Source of the DNA: an uncultured Chloroflexia bacterium
GTDB lineage: Bacteria; Chloroflexota; Anaerolineae; JAAYZQ01
Assembly (NCBI GenBank): GCA_963700285.1
Contig: CAVOXA010000010.1
Coordinates: 736,001-800,000 of the forward strand
DNA: 64,000 nucleotides
Direction of reading: 5' to 3'
A program made the translations under genes and the position numbers. Of this stretch, positions 41,361 through 49,380 are shown piece after piece (the first letter of the stretch is position 1; each line of letters starts with the position of its first letter). Under the pieces are notes generated by a model, which was given only the letters and a program-made list of their open reading frames with translations, was not told the origin of the DNA and searched no databases.

Positions 41361-42509
41361 CTATCTCAGCACCTTGTCAAGGGCCTGGACAAACCGGTCG
41401 ATGTCCCCCTCATCGTTATAGAGGTGCGGCGAGATCCGGATGCTATCCCGCACCGAGACAATGACATTGTCCTCGCCAAGCCTGGCCGCGATCTGCCCAG
41501 GTTCCTGTCCCGGAAAGTCCACCGCCAGGATCGAAGAACGACCGGCCTCATCCTCCGGAAGCTGAACCTGGCCGCCTCTGCTCTCGAGTTCTGACACCAG
41601 CCTGTCGACCAGCGCCAGGTTGTGGGCATAGATCCGCTCGATACCCACCGCATTCAGGTACTCCACCGCCCTGGCCAGTCCAACGGCGCAGCCATAGGCC
41701 ATGGTACTGGCCTCGAACCTTCGGGCGTTGTTAGGGAACTCGTACCGGTCAGCTCGCAGCGCCCAGATCTCCCGGTGACTGCGCCAGCCGACCATACCCG
41801 GATCCAGGGCGCGCTGCTGGGCCGGCGCCAAGTACATGATCGCTGCGCCAAAAGGACCGCACAGCCACTTGTACCCCGAGCAGACCAGTGCATCGACCCC
41901 TGCTTTTCCCACGTCCATGGGAACCTGGCCCATCGACTGCGTGGCGTCGACGGCCAGCAGGGCGCCATGCTCGTGCGCCTTACTGGCCAGCGCTGCCAGA
42001 TCGTACATCTGGCCCGTCCGATACTCGACGTGAGAGAGCGCCACTATGGCTGTCCGGTCGTCAATGAGATGGAGCAGCTCCTCCGGGTCTACAAGCCCCC
42101 GATCATCAGCTCTGGCCAGGCGTACCTCGCAACCCACATGGCGGGCGATCCGCTGCCAGGGGTAGATGGTTGAGGGAAAGGCTGCCTCCGTGCCGACGAT
42201 CACCTGATCGGGCTGGGGCAGGATGGCCCACGCCAGGGAGGACAAGAGTTCTGTGGCGCTGGAGCCGACGGCGATGTCATCGGCCCTGGCTCCCAAGAGC
42301 AGGGCCGAGGCTGCCCGCAAGTCGTCAAAGACGCCCTCCTCGGCTACCTCATCAAAGTTCAGTGTCCCGTTGTCCGCCAGATCTCGCTGCCAGGCGATGG
42401 TCGCCTCGGCCGCACCCACAGACATCAGTGCCACAGAGGCAGCATTGAGATAGGTCCATTTCTGGCTGGCCGGAAAGTCAGCCGCAGGTACCAACCTGTT
42501 CGCAGTCAC
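41361..42509 (-). CDS. Class V aminotransferase-fold PLP enzyme (cystine C-S lyase/selenocysteine lyase-like)
   Basis: YLNAAS, SHVEY.TG, VDATQSMG, SGYKWLCGP.G, RFE..T, IRISPHLYN; lacks the RxGxHCA and SSGSAC catalytic-Cys motifs. Confidence 0.85.
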   Translation of the reverse strand: MTANRLVPAADFPASQKWTYLNAASVALMSVGAAEATIAWQRDLADNGTLNFDEVAEEGVFDDLRAASALLLGARADDIAVGSSATELLSSLAWAILPQPDQVIVGTEAAFPSTIYPWQRIARHVGCEVRLARADDRGLVDPEELLHLIDDRTAIVALSHVEYRTGQMYDLAALASKAHEHGALLAVDATQSMGQVPMDVGKAGVDALVCSGYKWLCGPFGAAIMYLAPAQQRALDPGMVGWRSHREIWALRADRYEFPNNARRFEASTMAYGCAVGLARAVEYLNAVGIERIYAHNLALVDRLVSELESRGGQVQLPEDEAGRSSILAVDFPGQEPGQIAARLGEDNVIVSVRDSIRISPHLYNDEGDIDRFVQALDKVLR

Positions 42510-42961
42510 TCGATCTCCCCCGCCCCCATTGCGACTTTTCCGATCCAGTGTACCCAGTCGGCGCCAACCTGCCGCGTACCATTTGCCAGCCGCCGATCCG
42601 CTGTCCACAACGAAATTCCCTCTTGTTCCGCAAGGGCCAGATACTGTGCATCGTAGGCATTGGAATGTCCAAGGCGTTCCGACCAGTGCAGTGCTCGCTC
42701 ATGTAGATGGGCAGTGGGTGTCAAACACTGAATATTTAGCGACAGGATCTTGCCCATGGCTTCAACGGCAAGCTCGGGGGTCAGCCATCGGGCGACGACT
42801 GCTTTGCGCAGAATGGCGGCGATCTCGTATTCCAGCAGAACAGGAGCAAGCAACTCAGATCCGGCTCGTTTCCAGACTGTGATCTGCTGTGTCGCCTGAT
42901 CAGAATAGGGCAACGGCAGGACGACGGCCGCGACCACGTTAGCGTCAAGGACCACACTCAT
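42506..42961 (-). CDS. vapC: VapC-family PIN toxin
   Basis: VVLDAN, APVLLEYE, AYDAQYLALAE, LWTADRRL. Confidence 0.88.
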   Translation of the reverse strand: MSVVLDANVVAAVVLPLPYSDQATQQITVWKRAGSELLAPVLLEYEIAAILRKAVVARWLTPELAVEAMGKILSLNIQCLTPTAHLHERALHWSERLGHSNAYDAQYLALAEQEGISLWTADRRLANGTRQVGADWVHWIGKVAMGAGEIE

Positions 42962-43065
42962 TCCTCGCCTCGCCAGACCCGTTCGAGCTGTGACTGGAGC
43001 TTATTCCTTCCAGCCGGAAAACCGGCCGCGGGTCCAGGCATCCTACTGTACAGATCTACTGCCAC

Positions 43066-44133
43066 TCATGGCAGAAACGGCAGAAAGCGCTCTAACTCTC
43101 CCATGCGACTCACCACAGCTTCCAGCAGCGCAATCGTACCCCGGACATCGCCCATGTCCGCGACCTCAATCGGCGAGTGGGCATAGCGCCGCGGGATCGT
43201 CACGACGCCAGTAGGGATCCCCTCCCGCTGGAGATGAATGGCGCTGGCATCGGTCGAAGACCGGTCGTGCACCACCAGTTGATAGGGGATGCCCTGCTCC
43301 TCAGCCGTCTCGATCAGAAGGCGCTTCAGACCATGATGGGCGACATCGCCGCGGCTCACGAGGCGGAACACTGGGCCTTGTCCAATGCCGATAGGCAGCG
43401 TGGTATCGCCGGCCATGTCGGGCGTACCCCCGCAAGGCACCGTATCGACGACGATGGCGCAATCAGGACCGATGCGGTTCGCCGCCACTCTGGCGCCGCG
43501 CAGCCCTACCTCTTCCTGCACCGTTACGACGAGGTGAAGCGTGCCTGCAACTTGCTTGCCCTGCAGCCGTTCGAGCAGGGCCAGCAATACGACGCAGCCC
43601 AGACGGTTGTCCAGCGCCTTGCCCACGAAACGGTCCGGCTTGCTGAAGTGCTGTACCTCGCTGACATAGGTCACCGGATCGCCGATGCGGATGCCCATGT
43701 CAGCCGCTTCGTCCGCGCTGTCGGCGCCAACGTCAATGTACTGCTCCGTATAGGTGGGCACACGCAGGCGCTCTTCCGCGGTCTGCGCGTGGCCGGCCTT
43801 GAGGCCGATCACACCCAGGTGGCCGTTGACCATGACCTTGCGGCCTACGGCCAGAGAATCGAGCATCCCGCCCAGCTTGTTGAATCGCAGAAATCCGTCG
43901 GCTTCGATGGCCCGGACCACCCCGCCGATCTCGTCCGAATGGGCCGAGATCATGAGTGTTGGGCCGCCGGGTTCGCCCCGGCGCAGGGCATAGAGGTTGC
44001 CCGTGGTGTCAACCTCGACCTCGTCCGCGTAGGGTCGGAACGCGTCCAGCAGCCAGGCCACAACGTCATGCTCAAAGCCCGGTGCCCCGGGAATACGGCA
44101 CAATTCCTTTGTCAGTTCAAACAGGTCAGTCAT
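43066..44133 (-). CDS. M42 family metallopeptidase
   Basis: AHSDEIG, YIDVGA, KALDNR.G, TVQEEVGLRGA, TDA, RYAHSP.E. Confidence 0.92.
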   Translation of the reverse strand: MTDLFELTKELCRIPGAPGFEHDVVAWLLDAFRPYADEVEVDTTGNLYALRRGEPGGPTLMISAHSDEIGGVVRAIEADGFLRFNKLGGMLDSLAVGRKVMVNGHLGVIGLKAGHAQTAEERLRVPTYTEQYIDVGADSADEAADMGIRIGDPVTYVSEVQHFSKPDRFVGKALDNRLGCVVLLALLERLQGKQVAGTLHLVVTVQEEVGLRGARVAANRIGPDCAIVVDTVPCGGTPDMAGDTTLPIGIGQGPVFRLVSRGDVAHHGLKRLLIETAEEQGIPYQLVVHDRSSTDASAIHLQREGIPTGVVTIPRRYAHSPIEVADMGDVRGTIALLEAVVSRMGELERFLPFLP

Positions 44134-44312
44134 TTGATTCTGTTCCTCCATTTCAACGCCATGGAATGCTTCCAAGTATCACCTGTCGATATTGTACCAT
44201 AGGCAAGCCGGATTTCCTACTCTGTCTATCAGTCCTTGGATGTGGCTAGATAACGGCCAAGCCAGAACTGGGCCTCCGGTGCCACTTCCTGCTGCATCGG
44301 GCAGCGGCGCAC

Positions 44313-44353
44313 TTGACTGATCGCCGCATACTTGGTATAATCTTGGTATACCA
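44313..44353 (+). promoter_or_regulatory. sigma70 promoter with GntR/FadR-type operator
   Basis: TTGACT(44313)-17bp-TATAAT(44336); palindrome TGGTATACCA at 44344-44353. Confidence 0.7.
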
Positions 44354-44408
44354 GAGATACTTCTCACGTATGGATCATGGTATTTATCCTGATACCTGTT
44401 CACTCTTG

Positions 44409-44864
44409 GTGTGTACCGCACTAAAAACCTCATGGGAGAAAGTACCATCGACGGTCAACTCCAAAGTTACCTGGTTTGGCAGCAAGCAGTTTGTTGGCAC
44501 CGACAGCAGCAAGCACTCCGTCGTGATCTCTTCCCAGGATGAGGCCAATGGCACAGGTATGAGGCCGTTGGACCTGTTGCTGGTGGCGCTGGCGGGTTGC
44601 ACAGCCATGGGGGTTGTGGACATCCTGCAGCGGAAGCGCCAGGACCTGCTCGATTTTGAGATCAACATCTCCGGCGAGCAGGATGAAGATCCGCCCCGGG
44701 CCTTCAATCAAATTCACGTCGAGTATGTGGCCAAGGGATGTGGCATCAGGGAAAAGGCACTCTGCGATGCCATCGAGCTCTCGCTCAACAGGTACTGCTC
44801 GGTCAGCGGCACGGTGAAACACAAGGTTGAGATCACGACCAGCTACAAGATTGTTGAGCTATAG
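44409..44864 (+). CDS. OsmC/YhfA family protein (start uncertain)
   Basis: GMRPLDLLLVALAGCT, LQRKRQ, F..IHVEY, LS..RYCSV; no ATG start. Confidence 0.8.
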   Translation: MCTALKTSWEKVPSTVNSKVTWFGSKQFVGTDSSKHSVVISSQDEANGTGMRPLDLLLVALAGCTAMGVVDILQRKRQDLLDFEINISGEQDEDPPRAFNQIHVEYVAKGCGIREKALCDAIELSLNRYCSVSGTVKHKVEITTSYKIVEL

Positions 44865-44876
44865 ACAGGTCATTCT

Positions 44877-44958
44877 TGTCACTGCGAGCGCCAGCGAAGC
44901 AGTCCCCGCTAGGCAGGTGGGGATTACTTCGGCCCAAAGAGCGGGCCTCGCAATGACA
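44877..44958. repeat. Palindromic REP/RPE-like element
   Basis: TGTCACTGCGAG...GAAGCAGTCCCC...GGGGATTACTTC...CTCGCAATGACA nested inverted repeats. Confidence 0.75.
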
Positions 44959-44985
44959 TGGCCTGAGACAGATAAGGTGTGAACC

Positions 44986-45669
44986 ATGGGTTTTCCGGAA
45001 CCTGTTCCATCCCTGGCCGAGCAAGCGTACCTCCGCCTCCGGCAGGAAATCCTGGTCTGTACCCTGGCTCCGGGCCAAGTGGTGACCGAACGGGAGCTTG
45101 CCGCTCGCTACGAGATGAGCAAGACACCAATCCGCGAAGCCATCACCCAGGTCTGTCACGATGGGCTGGTGCAGCGGCTGCCGGGCCGGGGCTACATGGT
45201 AGCGCCTATTACTGTCAAGGACCTGCGCGACCTCTTTGGCATGCGTCTCATCCTCGAGACAGCCGCGGCGGAACGCACTGCTCGCACTCCCTCTCCCGCC
45301 CTGGTGACACAGCTCAAGAAGCTCTCGACCATCAGTTATGCTCTGGGGAACGGCGATAGCCAGGTCCAGTTCTTGAAGGGAAACCGCATCTTCCATCTCA
45401 CGCTGGCTGATGCGGCCGGCAACCGCCGTTTGACCCAGACGCTGGAGAGCCTACTGGTCGAGCTAGATCGTTACTTTCACCTGGGTCTGCGCCTGCGAGA
45501 CAGCAGTGGGGAGATGAAGCGCGAGCACGAGGAAGTGGTCGCGGCACTGGAAACTGGCGATGTCGAGGGGCTCACGACGTGTATCAAGGATCAGATCACG
45601 ACTTCGCGCGACCGCATTCTGGAAGCCATCATGAAGGGCGACATGCCAAGCGTCCAGTTGGGCGGCTGA
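44986..45669 (+). CDS. GntR family regulator with FCD domain
   Basis: SLAEQAY..LRQEI, ERELA..Y.MSKTPIREA, R..LE, FHLTL, EH. Confidence 0.92.
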   Translation: MGFPEPVPSLAEQAYLRLRQEILVCTLAPGQVVTERELAARYEMSKTPIREAITQVCHDGLVQRLPGRGYMVAPITVKDLRDLFGMRLILETAAAERTARTPSPALVTQLKKLSTISYALGNGDSQVQFLKGNRIFHLTLADAAGNRRLTQTLESLLVELDRYFHLGLRLRDSSGEMKREHEEVVAALETGDVEGLTTCIKDQITTSRDRILEAIMKGDMPSVQLGG

Positions 45670-45739
45670 TCTAGCGCGGGCAGAAACCCCACGATCGAGG
45701 AATTGCAGCGATAGGAATCGTCGAACAAAGGAGCAAAGG

Positions 45740-46060
45740 ATGCCACATATCGAGTACGACGGCAAGCAGATCGAGACGGATGAGGATGGTTTCATCACCG
45801 ACCCCTCGCTGTGGAACGAAGGCCTGGCCACAGCCATCGCCCAGCAGGAGGAAGGGCTCACCGAGCTGAGCGATGACCACTGGAAGGTGGTTTACTACCT
45901 CAATGCTTACTACCACGAGCACGACATCGCCCCCATGGTGCGCAAACTATGCAAAGAGACCGGCTTCAAGCTAAAAGAAATCTACGAGATGTTCCCCAGC
46001 GGTCCGGCCCGCGGAGCGTGCAAGGTGGCCGGGCTGCCCAAGCCAACCGGGTGCGTCTAG
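45740..46060 (+). CDS. dsrC: DsrC/TusE family sulfur relay protein with both C-terminal cysteines
   Basis: TDEDGF, HWKVV, APMVRKLCK, FPSGPARGACKVAGLPKPTGCV. Confidence 0.92.
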   Translation: MPHIEYDGKQIETDEDGFITDPSLWNEGLATAIAQQEEGLTELSDDHWKVVYYLNAYYHEHDIAPMVRKLCKETGFKLKEIYEMFPSGPARGACKVAGLPKPTGCV

Positions 46061-46064
46061 CTCC

Positions 46065-46694
46065 ATGGAATTCAGTGAGTTCCAGCAACTGACCCACGAG
46101 ATTGGTACCGCCATCCTGGTGCTGCTGTATCTGGCGCGGCTGGTCGTACTGCTCAAGCGCAGGCCGGCCCGCGACCTGGCCAGCAAGCCAAGGGGTGAGA
46201 TATGGAAAGGCACGGTCGACGCATTCCTGACCATAGTCGCCCCGTGGCGCATGGAAAGTACCAAGAAGCACTGGACGCGCTACGTCGAGTTTGTGGTTTT
46301 TCACATCGGCGTGTTCCTCTGCATCGCGCTTTCGTTTGTGATCACCTACGCTCCGGGAATTTTGACCCCACCCGTCCGCGCCGCGGTCTTTGCTCTGATG
46401 GCGGCCTCGCTGGTCGCGGGCGGCCTGCGCCTGGTCCGCCGGGTTAGGCTGCCGGAAATGCGCATCATCAGCTCGCCCGATGACTATCTTGCCATGGGCA
46501 TGGTACTGGGCTTTCTGGGAACCGGGATGCTGAGCTTGACCGGTTGGGAGGCGGCTATCATCGCCTACTTTGTGGTGAGCGCTCTGTTCCTGGCCTACGA
46601 ACCCTTTAGCAAGATCCGCCACTATATCTACTATCCCTTCGCTCGCTACTACTATGGGGCGGCCTTTGGCCGTCGCGGCGTGATCGGCTGGTGA
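46065..46694 (+). CDS. NarI/DsrM-like cytochrome b membrane subunit
   Basis: About 5 TMs; FHIG, RR....MR.IS.PDDY, PFSKIRH. Confidence 0.75.
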   Translation: MEFSEFQQLTHEIGTAILVLLYLARLVVLLKRRPARDLASKPRGEIWKGTVDAFLTIVAPWRMESTKKHWTRYVEFVVFHIGVFLCIALSFVITYAPGILTPPVRAAVFALMAASLVAGGLRLVRRVRLPEMRIISSPDDYLAMGMVLGFLGTGMLSLTGWEAAIIAYFVVSALFLAYEPFSKIRHYIYYPFARYYYGAAFGRRGVIGW

Positions 46695-48034
46695 TGGAGG
46701 CAACGATGCAAGCATCAAAGAAGGATGTCTCCGCCGCCCTGGAGGTTCTCTCCCAGCGCCTCACCCGCCAGCTAGAGGCGTCGATGCACGCCTGCGCCCA
46801 CTGCGGGCTGTGCAACGATTCGTGCCACTATTACGTCGCCCTCGGTGAACCTGAAATGGTGCCCACCTACAAGGCGGACCGGCTGCGAAACGTTTGGAAA
46901 AGGCGCTACGACTGGATGGGGCAGGTCTGGCCCTGGTACGTGGGGGCGCGCAAGCTGGATGAAGGTGTGATCGAGGAACTGTGGGATACCGCCTGGGGTG
47001 CGTGCACGATGTGCGGGCGGTGTGTGTTCAACTGCCCCTTTGGCGTCGATACGCGGTTGATCATCGGCACGGCGCGGGCCATGCTGGGTGCTATGGGCCT
47101 GGTGCCCCAGGGGCTGCAGGACACCGTGGACATCCACCTCCAGACCAAGAACAACATGGGGGTGAACGAAGAGGATTTTCGGGACACCATCGAATGGCTG
47201 GACGAGCAGCTTTGCGACGAGCTGGAGGTTGAGGGACCCGTCATCCCCTTGGACAAGCCGGGGGCGCGGGTCATGTACCTGGTCAATCCGCGTGAGGTCA
47301 AGTTCTACCCGCTCTCGCTGATGGCTGCGGCCAAGGTCATGTATGTAGCGGGCGAAGACTGGACCATGAGCACCGAGTACTGGGACGTGACCAACTATGC
47401 CCTCTTCTCTTGTGACGACGACGCCGCACGTCAGATCGGCCAGTGGGTGGCCGATGCGGCGACCAGGATGGGCGTCAAAGAGGTGTGGATGTCCGAGTGT
47501 GGCCACGGCTACAACGCTCTGCGCTGGGAAGGAGAGAACTGGCTGGGCCAACCCTTCCCCTTCGAGGTACGCAGCTTTGTCGAGGCCATGGCAGAATACA
47601 TCCGCGATGGGTGTCTGCAGCTTGACCCATCTCGAAATCCGCAGCCGGTCACGTACCACGATCCCTGCAACCAGGGGCGCAAGGGCGGAATCCTCAAGGA
47701 GCCGCGCTATATTCTATCACAGACGGTAACCGACTTTCGCGAGATGCTGCCCAATGGCCGGGACAACTATTGCTGTGGAGGCGGGGGAGGGATGTTGTCA
47801 ATGAGCGAGTTTTCCAAGAGGCGCATCGCTGCCGCCAGCGTAAAGGCAGGCCAGATTCAGAGCACCGAAGCCAAGATCGTAGCTACTTCTTGCCATAACT
47901 GCCTGGATCAACTGGCCGACGTCAACCGCAGGTACCAGCTCGGCGCACCGGCCAAGAACCTGTGCGAGCTGGTAGCCGATGCCATTGTCTGGCCGCCAAG
48001 GCCGGATACAGACGGACCTGATGGCTTGGCCTGA
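46691..48034 (+). CDS. DsrK/TmcB/HdrD-like Fe-S oxidoreductase with CCG domain
   Basis: CAHCGLCNDSC, CTMCGRCVFNCP, SECGHG, YHDPC, CCGGGGG, SCHNC. Confidence 0.9.
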   Translation: MMEATMQASKKDVSAALEVLSQRLTRQLEASMHACAHCGLCNDSCHYYVALGEPEMVPTYKADRLRNVWKRRYDWMGQVWPWYVGARKLDEGVIEELWDTAWGACTMCGRCVFNCPFGVDTRLIIGTARAMLGAMGLVPQGLQDTVDIHLQTKNNMGVNEEDFRDTIEWLDEQLCDELEVEGPVIPLDKPGARVMYLVNPREVKFYPLSLMAAAKVMYVAGEDWTMSTEYWDVTNYALFSCDDDAARQIGQWVADAATRMGVKEVWMSECGHGYNALRWEGENWLGQPFPFEVRSFVEAMAEYIRDGCLQLDPSRNPQPVTYHDPCNQGRKGGILKEPRYILSQTVTDFREMLPNGRDNYCCGGGGGMLSMSEFSKRRIAAASVKAGQIQSTEAKIVATSCHNCLDQLADVNRRYQLGAPAKNLCELVADAIVWPPRPDTDGPDGLA

Positions 48035-48072
48035 ACACCCGAGTGACAAGATACCAATCCGAGGAGGCGATC

Positions 48073-49236
48073 ATGGGCGATTTGATCTACCTGGACAACG
48101 GAGCTACATCCTTTCCAAAGCCTGAAGTAGTCTATACCTTTATGGACCATGCCTACCGCAGCTTTGGAGTCAATCCGGGCCGCTCGGGCTATGACCTGTG
48201 CCTGGAGGCTGGCCAACTGGTCGACGATACCCGCAAGCTCCTGACAACGCTCTTTAACGGAGCCGACCCCAACCGCCTCGTCTTTTCCTACAACTCTACC
48301 GATGCCCTAAACCTGATCATCAATGGCCTGCTGCGCCCCGGAGACCACGCCATTTCGACGACCCTGGAGCACAATTCGGTGCTGCGCCCCCTGTATCATC
48401 TCTCACGGGATGGAGTTGAGGTGGATCTCGTACCCTTTGACGGGGCTGGGTTTGTCGATCCCGGCGCAATCAAGGCCAAGTTCAAGGCAAATACCCGCCT
48501 GGTCATCGTCAACCACGCATCCAACGTCATTGGCACCGTCCTGAACATCCGCGAGATCGGCAGATTGTGCCGCGAGGCGGGTATCCCCTTCGCCATTGAT
48601 TCGTCCCAGTCGGCGGGCAAGATCAAGATCGACATGGAAGAGGACAATCTGGATATAGTGGCCTTTACCGGGCACAAATCACTGTTTGGCCCGACCGGCA
48701 TCGGCGGGATGTACGTCCGGGAGGGGATCGAGATCCGGCATACACGGGCCGGCGGCTCGGGTGTGCGCTCGGCCGACCGCGCCCACCTGGACGAGTATCC
48801 CTACCGCATGGAATATGGCACGCCCAACGTGGCCGGCATCGCCGGTCTGCAAGCGGGCGTCAAGTGGGTCGAGGGCCAGGGCATCGAATCTATACACGAG
48901 CGCGAGATGAAACTGCTGCGGTTACTGCGCGATGGCCTGGCGGAGATCCCGGGCGTCATCCTCTACTGCCAGGAAGACTTGACGGACCACATCGCCGTCC
49001 TGGCCTTCAACGTCGAGGGCATGGATGCCGGCGACGTGGGCACGCTCATCGACGTCGACCACGACATTGCCTGCCGGACAGGGCTGCATTGTGCGCCCCT
49101 GGTCCACGAAGGGCTGGGAACTGCCGTCCGTGGCGCTGTCAGGTTCAGCATCGGACCCTTCAACACTGAGGAACATACACAGATCGCGGTCGACGCGGTC
49201 AAAGAGATAGCAGAGTTTGCCCAGCGCAAGTCCTAG
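48073..49236 (+). CDS. Cysteine desulfurase (class V aminotransferase, SufS-like group)
   Basis: YLDNGATSFPKP, LEHNSV, NHASNVIG, FTGHKSL.GPTG, RTGLHCAP. Confidence 0.92.
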   Translation: MGDLIYLDNGATSFPKPEVVYTFMDHAYRSFGVNPGRSGYDLCLEAGQLVDDTRKLLTTLFNGADPNRLVFSYNSTDALNLIINGLLRPGDHAISTTLEHNSVLRPLYHLSRDGVEVDLVPFDGAGFVDPGAIKAKFKANTRLVIVNHASNVIGTVLNIREIGRLCREAGIPFAIDSSQSAGKIKIDMEEDNLDIVAFTGHKSLFGPTGIGGMYVREGIEIRHTRAGGSGVRSADRAHLDEYPYRMEYGTPNVAGIAGLQAGVKWVEGQGIESIHEREMKLLRLLRDGLAEIPGVILYCQEDLTDHIAVLAFNVEGMDAGDVGTLIDVDHDIACRTGLHCAPLVHEGLGTAVRGAVRFSIGPFNTEEHTQIAVDAVKEIAEFAQRKS

Positions 49237-49380
49237 AGCCTGGGGGTCAGAGCTTTCTCATTTGAGAGAAGAAAGGAGGCGGCACTGAACAATAGGAGTG
49301 GAAGTGAGGCGGACCGGTACTTGGCTGAATTGTATACACCAAAAGGAGGATCAAGGTTATGAAACGCGTCGGTATCAAGC

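Follow-up and report, generated by a model that had tools for sequence, protein, structure and literature searches.

Can a respiratory-type DsrC and a membrane-bound DsrK-like protein be put to use without the dissimilatory sulfite reductase DsrAB, and if so, what would supply the sulfur? This question is raised by a cassette in a 64,000-nucleotide stretch of contig CAVOXA010000010.1 (hereafter the window) from an uncultured Chloroflexia bacterium. Six co-oriented open reading frames (ORFs) at this locus encode an OsmC-like protein, a GntR regulator, DsrC, a NarI-family membrane subunit (M), a DsrK-superfamily protein (K) and a cysteine desulfurase. All six are present, Pfam and NCBIfam agree with the families proposed in a first-pass annotation of the sequence, and its spacings of 4, -4 and 38 nt for dsrC-M, M-K and K-desulfurase proved right when recomputed. 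The module is real, conserved, built from known parts and apparently undescribed, and a function can be proposed for it from those parts. We give a probability of roughly 55% to the prediction that the cassette runs the reaction cysteine + quinol → alanine + H2S by way of a DsrC persulfide.

Components of the cassette and gene content of the host

The dsrC gene (45740..46060, forward strand) encodes a protein that scores above the PF04358 and TIGR03342 cut-offs and is 64-74% identical to the DsrC proteins of dsrAB operons. Its C-terminus, ACKVAGLPKPTGCV, keeps both cysteines (C94 and C105) as first reported, and the protein carries the AGLPKPTG-C motif that, together with two conserved C-terminal cysteines, defines respiratory DsrC (PMC8477390; citations here and below refer to excerpts of the papers named). 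The first of these cysteines is described as almost confined to DsrAB organisms (PMC3397948), and both are present in 27/28 aligned cassette copies. The TusE profile NF008562 yields 82 bits against a cut-off of 191, and an identity as a tRNA-thiolation protein was rejected on this score and on the presence of mnmA in a same-genus genome that has no DsrC. The residue after LPKP is Thr in 29/29 dsr-operon copies and Asp in 27 of the 32 desulfurase-linked DsrC proteins, that of the related locus L011 included; the window protein has Thr, and its nearest relative is the dsr-operon DsrC of the dsrAB-positive genome G043 (71% identity; weak support, 0.81, FastTree).

K (46691..48034, forward strand; 447 amino acids) has the two CxxCxxCxxxC cubane motifs and the CCG domain reported for it, the latter in one copy, as well as an ECGH motif (C270, H272) and a CxxC ending in Cys404. 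The ECGH Cys/His and the single CCG cluster are features of DsrK, and the former is kept in 32/32 desulfurase-linked K copies. The label 'DsrMK-like' should not be taken to mean canonical DsrMK, however, to which the pair is not orthologous. K scores 253 against the DsrK cut-off of 400 (NF045796) and lies in a separate clade, starred in our tree, and the best NCBIfam scores of M and K are those of HmcE/TmcC and HmcF/TmcB (scores/cut-offs for the HmcEF/TmcCB profiles, 306/750, 276/735, 55/275 and 54/240), under every cut-off, including those of DsrM and DsrK. The scores place the pair, and the tree places K, on the HmcEF/TmcCB side, and the cassette holds no periplasmic cytochrome. A true DsrK is encoded besides window-type K in the dsrAB genomes G043, G074, G046, G047 and G063. 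Canonical DsrMK identity was rejected on all of these grounds, and window-type K was rejected as the DsrK of dsrAB genomes on the last of them.

In A. fulgidus DsrK, density at the ECGH cysteine has been assigned as a persulfide, and a sulfur relay from the last DsrC cysteine proposed (10.64898/2026.08.25.746951). At the position of A. fulgidus Asp500, the last cysteine of the CxxC, window K has Cys404. This position is Asp in 9/9 Desulfobacterota DsrK proteins and Cys in two above-cut-off Chloroflexota DsrK proteins, and we rejected it as a sign of persulfide specificity since it does not discriminate.

M (46065..46694, forward strand; 209 amino acids) is predicted to bind a single heme b. 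Aligned to NarI, its H80 and H186 match H56 and H205, which we take to be the proximal-heme ligands, while counterparts of NarI H66 and H187, and of the loop preceding the last helix, are missing. These two histidines are conserved in 86 and 85 of 86 rows, and the H66/H187 positions are not His. By comparison, DsrM and DsrM-1 are recognized by four heme histidines and a NarI-type quinol site at the periplasm-side heme, and four histidines are kept in the DsrM of L249/L251 and in the TmcC/HmcE-like proteins of L264 and L267. M is predicted to fold into helices, and NarI heads its fold matches (all above E 0.001). Because M has no distal heme ligands, no energy should be conserved at the M-K complex and no redox loop is expected; it is unlikely that the complex itself builds a proton gradient. 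Single-heme NarI-like domains are described as passing electrons to menaquinone without energetic coupling (10.64898/2026.08.18.745454; PMC13083937).

The last gene (48073..49236, forward strand) encodes a SufS-like, group II cysteine desulfurase of a dedicated clade. Its TIGR01977 score of 426 bits exceeds the cut-off of 377, the RTGLHCAP motif noted in the first reading is present, and both the pyridoxal phosphate lysine (K202) and the catalytic cysteine (C340, in a motif of the SufS kind) can be assigned. A further cysteine, C43, is specific to this clade and invariant in it (57/57).

The host assembly (G000) comprises 7.05 Mb at 89.3% completeness and 6.5% contamination, and its nearest named relatives are Anaerolineae/Chloroflexota. 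The first-pass annotation had noted that no dsrAB lies nearby, and the same now holds for the whole 89.3% complete assembly, where a profile search for NIR_SIR, dsrA and dsrB gave no match and tblastn with DsrN and with DsrA, DsrB and DsrD from two operons gave nothing. The matches to aprA are weak at most (best E 9e-6), and one dsrC was found. The genes sat and mnmA are in frameshifted pieces (C1:187125-187759 and C1:1620167-1621230), as is mnmA in G001 and G015, which are probably assembly errors; sat adjoins an APS (adenosine phosphosulfate) kinase gene, and an IscS-like gene lies ~7 kb from mnmA. Many xanthine-dehydrogenase-family genes are present. The proposal that the host is an amino-acid fermenter is not supported: NuoD and MenA above cut-offs and COX1/COX2-like genes suggest a respiring organism rather than a plain fermenter.

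Recurrence and origin of the linkage

Desulfurase loci from metagenomes were compared. Among the best 80 of 119 metagenome loci, K is matched in 44, DsrC in 33 and M in 33, and dsrA, dsrB and dsrN in none. A desulfurase tree divides these loci into a core clade (in which partial sequences outside the tree were counted) and a sister clade. In the core clade, dsrC, M or K lies within 4.5 kb of the desulfurase in 46/62 loci; 30 loci have all three (dereplication at 90% leaves 20), and of the 16 unlinked loci none has flanks of 3 kb on both sides. None of the 18 sister-clade loci is linked, six of them with long flanks; L156 has a K gene ~5.5 kb away. Linkage persists through rearrangements in at least four gene orders (dsrC-M-K-desulfurase; desulfurase-dsrC-M-K; desulfurase facing K-M-dsrC; and M-K-dsrC facing desulfurase). 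Thus, association of the desulfurase with dsrC, M and K is far above chance, and the linkage that the first-pass annotation treated as decisive is conserved in homologous loci. No further member of the desulfurase clade appeared in a 401-genome sample of the phylum, with 4 candidates scored per genome (best, 52%).

A second survey started from K. It covered 72 genome loci with K proteins 47-83% identical to window K, among which kin are not independent and counts are raw. The order dsrC-M-K-desulfurase occurs in two of these loci, L010 and L011, which are the two closest. The three genomes that share this order, counting the host, are all without dsrAB matches, and that of L011 (G015/G042) is 95% complete. 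In contrast, 67/72 K-family genomes (48/50 + 19/22) have dsrA/B matches; the cassette genomes account for two of the five exceptions. Only 1/48 tested dsrAB genomes has a close desulfurase. Window-type M-K is a second pair in dsrAB genomes. For example, L251 has dsrA-B-D-C, a true DsrK (514 bits; cut-off 400) and a window-type M-K further on, and in L016 (Firmicutes) the window-type pair is within dsrA-B-D-ferredoxin-C-M-K-N and a true DsrK is elsewhere in the genome. In dsrAB-positive Anaerolineae, the genes for the closest relatives of window K follow those for NrfD and for a large protein predicted to be multiheme (our label; no Pfam hit).

We built a careful K tree from 46 of 132 rows, picked to span clades. 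Window K groups with those of L010 and L011 (100/96), then with L012 of dsrAB-positive G043 (100/100), whose K is 78% identical to it, and then with L013/L014 (100/99). K proteins linked to the desulfurase at other loci make up two starred clades of their own, L140 falls on the DsrK side, and true DsrK stands apart. An approximately unbiased (AU) test on 14 rows of a quick tree, with groups set by gene context after a prior FastTree had been viewed, rejected a single clade for the window and main metagenome K groups (p 1.9e-5), and with it one origin of all desulfurase-linked K. Since window K nests within the K proteins of dsrAB-positive Anaerolineae and not with the other desulfurase-linked ones, more than one assembly of the module is probable. 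On the simplest reading of these relationships, a sulfite-reducing Anaerolineae lineage was the source of DsrC and M-K, and their coupling to the desulfurase happened separately from that in the other modules. The deep order of K clades is not resolved, and therefore gain and loss cannot be ordered.

Several related arrangements were encountered. Many Anaerolineae/Dehalococcoidia genomes among the 72 have dsrAB, large dsr clusters, two M-K pairs, a PhsA/QrcB-like molybdopterin protein, NrfD and siroheme genes. In 16 Chloroflexota loci, mostly from Dehalococcoidia (L043, L044, L046, L050, L052, L053, L055, L056, L058-L061, L063, L064, L069 and L080), K continues in frame into a DsrC-like domain at its C-terminus, one without the GC[VA] tail, and more such DsrC-like genes often follow. 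The host genome itself has a second K gene with ECGH (C1:471438-474220; L091:11439-14220, reverse strand) together with DsrE2-like, TusA and NarI/DsrM-like genes, the last with a frameshifted end; from its gene content, this appears to be a parallel module that uses TusA instead of DsrC as carrier, also without DsrAB. Elsewhere in this genome (C10:546300-548937; L250), a YedE gene, a TusA-like gene and a second TIGR01977 enzyme likely serve selenium or sulfur trafficking. A row of aldehyde oxidoreductase, one-Cys DsrC-like, desulfurase (51-52%), XdhC-like and NTP-transferase genes (L244:4905-11548, and L245-L247) is likely a relay for molybdenum cofactor (Moco) sulfuration with a DsrC-family carrier, and its four DsrC-like proteins keep the last cysteine only. 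These rows show a second setting in which an enzyme of this desulfurase family is paired, without TusA, with a carrier of the DsrC family. Finally, genome G018, which gave no dsrB match, has a run of molybdopterin oxidoreductase, Fe-S, NrfD, two-Cys DsrC, desulfurase, DUF3343, carbohydrate-kinase-like, YeeE and PALP genes (L092:1554-11815).

Substrate and direction of the reaction

In the reaction that we favour, cysteine would be the substrate and the desulfurase would load a persulfide straight onto C105 of DsrC, without TusA or DsrEFH. A. vinosum DsrC is persulfurated at its penultimate cysteine by E. coli IscS with cysteine, or by sulfide (PMC3397948). The predicted single-heme M-K complex would then reduce the DsrC persulfide to H2S with two electrons from the quinol pool. 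K may take the sulfur on its ECGH cysteine and reduce it at the non-cubane cluster or, with the same net reaction, may reduce the DsrC disulfide that is left once C94 releases H2S. With a heme on the cytoplasmic side alone, M would make this step an electroneutral electron sink, and any energy conservation would fall to complex I or other dehydrogenases that reduce quinone upstream. This reductive direction is supported because the cassette genomes are without dsrAB, the linkage is conserved, DsrC has two cysteines and ECGH is kept. Neighbouring genes in the 80 desulfurase loci speak for it too, with CoA-disulfide-reductase-like genes in 5, cysteine-synthase-like genes in 9 and MocR regulators (at >=68%) in 17. 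The original suggestion that the desulfurase replaces DsrAB as donor to DsrC is still the best reading, but not in the form of trisulfide-type loading. By redox bookkeeping, the product of a desulfurase should be a persulfide, which is more reduced by two electrons than the trisulfide made by DsrAB. Nor would energy be conserved at M-K.

From rough constants, we estimate the cysteine/(alanine + H2S) couple at about -105 mV, and the persulfide couple at about -220 mV under standard conditions and about -100 to -40 mV at 10-100 uM H2S. For menaquinol to reduce a DsrC persulfide, sulfide would have to be scarce and DsrC held in its loaded form. The DsrC trisulfide's potential is stated as unknown in PMC10861901. 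Several observations weigh against the proposed reaction. Standard potentials are uphill from menaquinol, and in EtfD, the closest single-heme relative with a solved structure, electrons go to menaquinone (PMC13083937), so that either direction may apply. Searches in the host found neither MqnA/D nor MenB above cut-off, so that the quinone is not established by the futalosine and MenB searches, and completeness there is 89%. The three other K-family genomes that lack dsrA/B (1.6, 1.8 and 5.3 Mb) gave no dsrA match and have no cassette in the loci examined, and the dsrAB status of metagenome carriers covers their contigs alone. Some copies depart from the pattern: L104 and L129 have dsrC-desulfurase without adjacent M-K, L146 has only a different GntR gene preceding the desulfurase, again without M-K, the L100 DsrC has no first cysteine, and dsrAB-positive G057 has a lone, 78% identical desulfurase with 8 kb flanks. 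TIGR01977 also includes selenocysteine-lyase relatives, and the SclA profile gives the window enzyme 293 bits, under its cut-off.

In a rival reading, the system runs in the oxidative direction. M-K would drain electrons into menaquinone from the thiols of DsrC, from its persulfide or from sulfide (taking persulfide to trisulfide, or H2S to persulfide), and the desulfurase would feed or relay sulfane sulfur for storage, detoxification or transfer. This would be downhill at standard potentials, single-heme EtfD reduces menaquinone without coupling, and in sulfur oxidizers DsrMK(JOP) has been described to oxidize persulfurated DsrC (PMC8477390). However, no outlet for a trisulfide was found in this genome without DsrAB, trisulfides resist chemical reductants (PMC10861901), and sulfide oxidation would be redundant alongside a desulfurase that already makes sulfane sulfur, and we consider this direction unlikely. 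Our doubts are somewhat greater about a biosynthetic relay in which the desulfurase and DsrC supply sulfur for cofactors or tRNA (TusE-like, for Moco sulfuration or for the K cluster) and M-K keeps DsrC reduced. The aldehyde oxidoreductase/XdhC rows at four loci, the dsrC-desulfurase pair behind a molybdopterin oxidoreductase in G018 with its YeeE and DUF3343 genes, and the host's xanthine-dehydrogenase-family genes are all compatible with such a role. Yet the relay-type DsrC-like proteins have one cysteine and go with a separate desulfurase clade, no gene for a sulfur-accepting client recurs by the cassette in the 80 loci, the 67 dsrAB genomes build the same K with hardly a close desulfurase among those tested, and mnmA appears to be served by the IscS-like gene near it.

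Two further explanations strike us as improbable, each to about the same degree. The substrate could be selenocysteine, cysteine sulfinate, cystine or S-sulfocysteine, in which case DsrC and M-K would handle selenium or other sulfur species. The TIGR01977 clade is close to the selenocysteine lyase SclA, and C43 might point to distinct chemistry. The cysteine-synthase-like neighbours in 9 of the 80 loci suit this idea as well. The second TIGR01977 enzyme beside YedE and the TusA-like gene fits a selenium role better, however, and the C340 motif is of the SufS kind. Alternatively, dsrC-M-K might be left over from a dsr cluster, or dsrAB might lie in the missing 11% of the assembly, with the desulfurase a chance neighbour. 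K and DsrC are indeed nearest those of dsrAB-positive G043, and the cassette is patchy, with its desulfurase in 2/23 genomes of the host's family. Nevertheless, all cassette ORFs are intact, the three genomes that share the order are all without dsrAB, the linkage recurs in unrelated clades, and in G043 dsrC and the window-type M-K are in different clusters, so the cassette order is not a simple deletion product.

If cysteine-fed reduction of DsrC is correct, it would be a new biogenic source of H2S, invisible to dsrAB surveys, and a new use of an amino acid as electron sink. A more ambitious version is possible, although we hold it doubtful as a whole. Cysteine would be a respiratory acceptor (NADH to complex I, quinone, single-heme M-K, DsrC persulfide and H2S) in a DsrAB-free cycle assembled several times from different K lineages. 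The HmcF/TmcB-side pair would then be the missing DsrC persulfide/disulfide reductase of sulfite reducers, and where a cysteine synthase is in the operon, sulfur might turn over catalytically as serine is reduced to alanine. Two-Cys DsrC and DsrMK are treated as parts and markers of DsrAB-based sulfur metabolism. Small and open to experiment, the cassette also lends itself to asking what is reduced by HmcF/TmcB-like proteins with a single cluster. The locus is useful since its DsrC and K, at 71% and 78% identity, can be compared directly with those of a dsrAB-positive relative.

Setting of the cassette and comparison with known systems

The cassette appears to be an insertion. It fills a slot between M42 peptidase and MFS genes (44225..49369), both of which are kept at 85-87% DNA identity in the same-genus genome G001, where the slot measures ~2 kb and holds an ABC ATPase gene, compared with the 5.1 kb cassette in the window. 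The divergent M42 peptidase gene and a second class V aminotransferase gene (41361-44175) are common to G001; between the two, a PIN-domain gene (42506-42961) is found in the window and not in G001.

A sigma-70-like promoter with an extended -10 (TTGACT-17-TATAAT; 44313..44341, forward strand) matches 11/12 consensus positions. The promoter scan by itself is not significant, with 1 found against a shuffle mean of 2.0. Directly downstream, the palindrome TGGTATACCA (44344..44353; one match in the window and three exact in the genome) is a likely operator, which we presume to be of the GntR/FadR type. L010 has the same -35/-10 box and palindrome at the same place before gntR, with no OsmC gene between. 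Position 44313 had been read as the start of the OsmC-like gene. It is the first base of the -35 box, and since L010 has both promoter and palindrome ahead of gntR, this TTG is unlikely to be the OsmC start. The OsmC-like gene (PF02566; 44439..44864, forward strand, start uncertain) is best regarded as a passenger. It was rejected as a part of the module, to which it had been assigned from its place in the co-oriented run, since neither the 72 loci found with K nor the 80 found with the desulfurase gave an OsmC match. The gap between it and gntR holds a palindromic element (44874-44958) that matches several places in G001. The GntR/FCD regulator (Pfam match; 44986..45669, forward strand) has an ortholog with 68% identity preceding dsrC in L010, and it may switch the operon in response to some ligand.

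We found no published description of dsrC-M-K with a desulfurase, in a search that mostly excluded subscription papers and supplements, and no such module is mentioned in the excerpts of PMC8528874, PMC10920352, PMC9774590 and 10.1101/2023.06.27.546762. A basal DsrMK clade has been reported in which 7/74 bacterial assemblies are without DsrAB, with basal Chloroflexi DsrM from organisms without DsrAB (PMC10504309); the word 'desulfurase' is absent from the main text of that paper.

Of known systems, DsrAB-DsrC-DsrMK(JOP), which carries out menadiol:DsrC-trisulfide reduction (PMC10861901; structure in 10.64898/2026.08.25.746951), shares with the cassette a two-Cys DsrC with AGLPKPTGC, a NarI-family subunit and a K with two cubanes, one CCG and ECGH. 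It differs in that no DsrAB, DsrD, DsrN or DsrJ was found here, K misses the DsrK cut-off and belongs to a different clade, M has two His rather than four, a desulfurase is in the operon, and the expected substrate is a persulfide (2 electrons) rather than a trisulfide (4). HmcEF/TmcCB of Desulfobacterota give the best hidden Markov model scores for M and K, and K lies on the HmcF/TmcB side of the tree; however, both proteins are under the cut-offs, the TmcC/HmcE-like proteins have four His where M has two, and the cassette has neither a periplasmic cytochrome nor NrfD. The IscS-TusA-TusBCD-TusE-MnmA relay of E. coli (PMC3397948) likewise places a desulfurase upstream of a DsrC-family carrier, whereas the cassette DsrC falls well short of the TusE cut-off and keeps both cysteines, no TusBCD-type genes are present, and a membrane reductase is attached. 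EtfD/EMO (PDB 9OJN; PMC13083937), the sole PDB sequence match for K and a weak fold match for M (TM 0.62, E 0.25), resembles M-K in linking the single b heme of a NarI-like domain to cubane and non-cubane clusters. It is, however, one fused polypeptide with two CCG sites, its electrons come from electron transfer flavoprotein, and it performs no sulfur chemistry.

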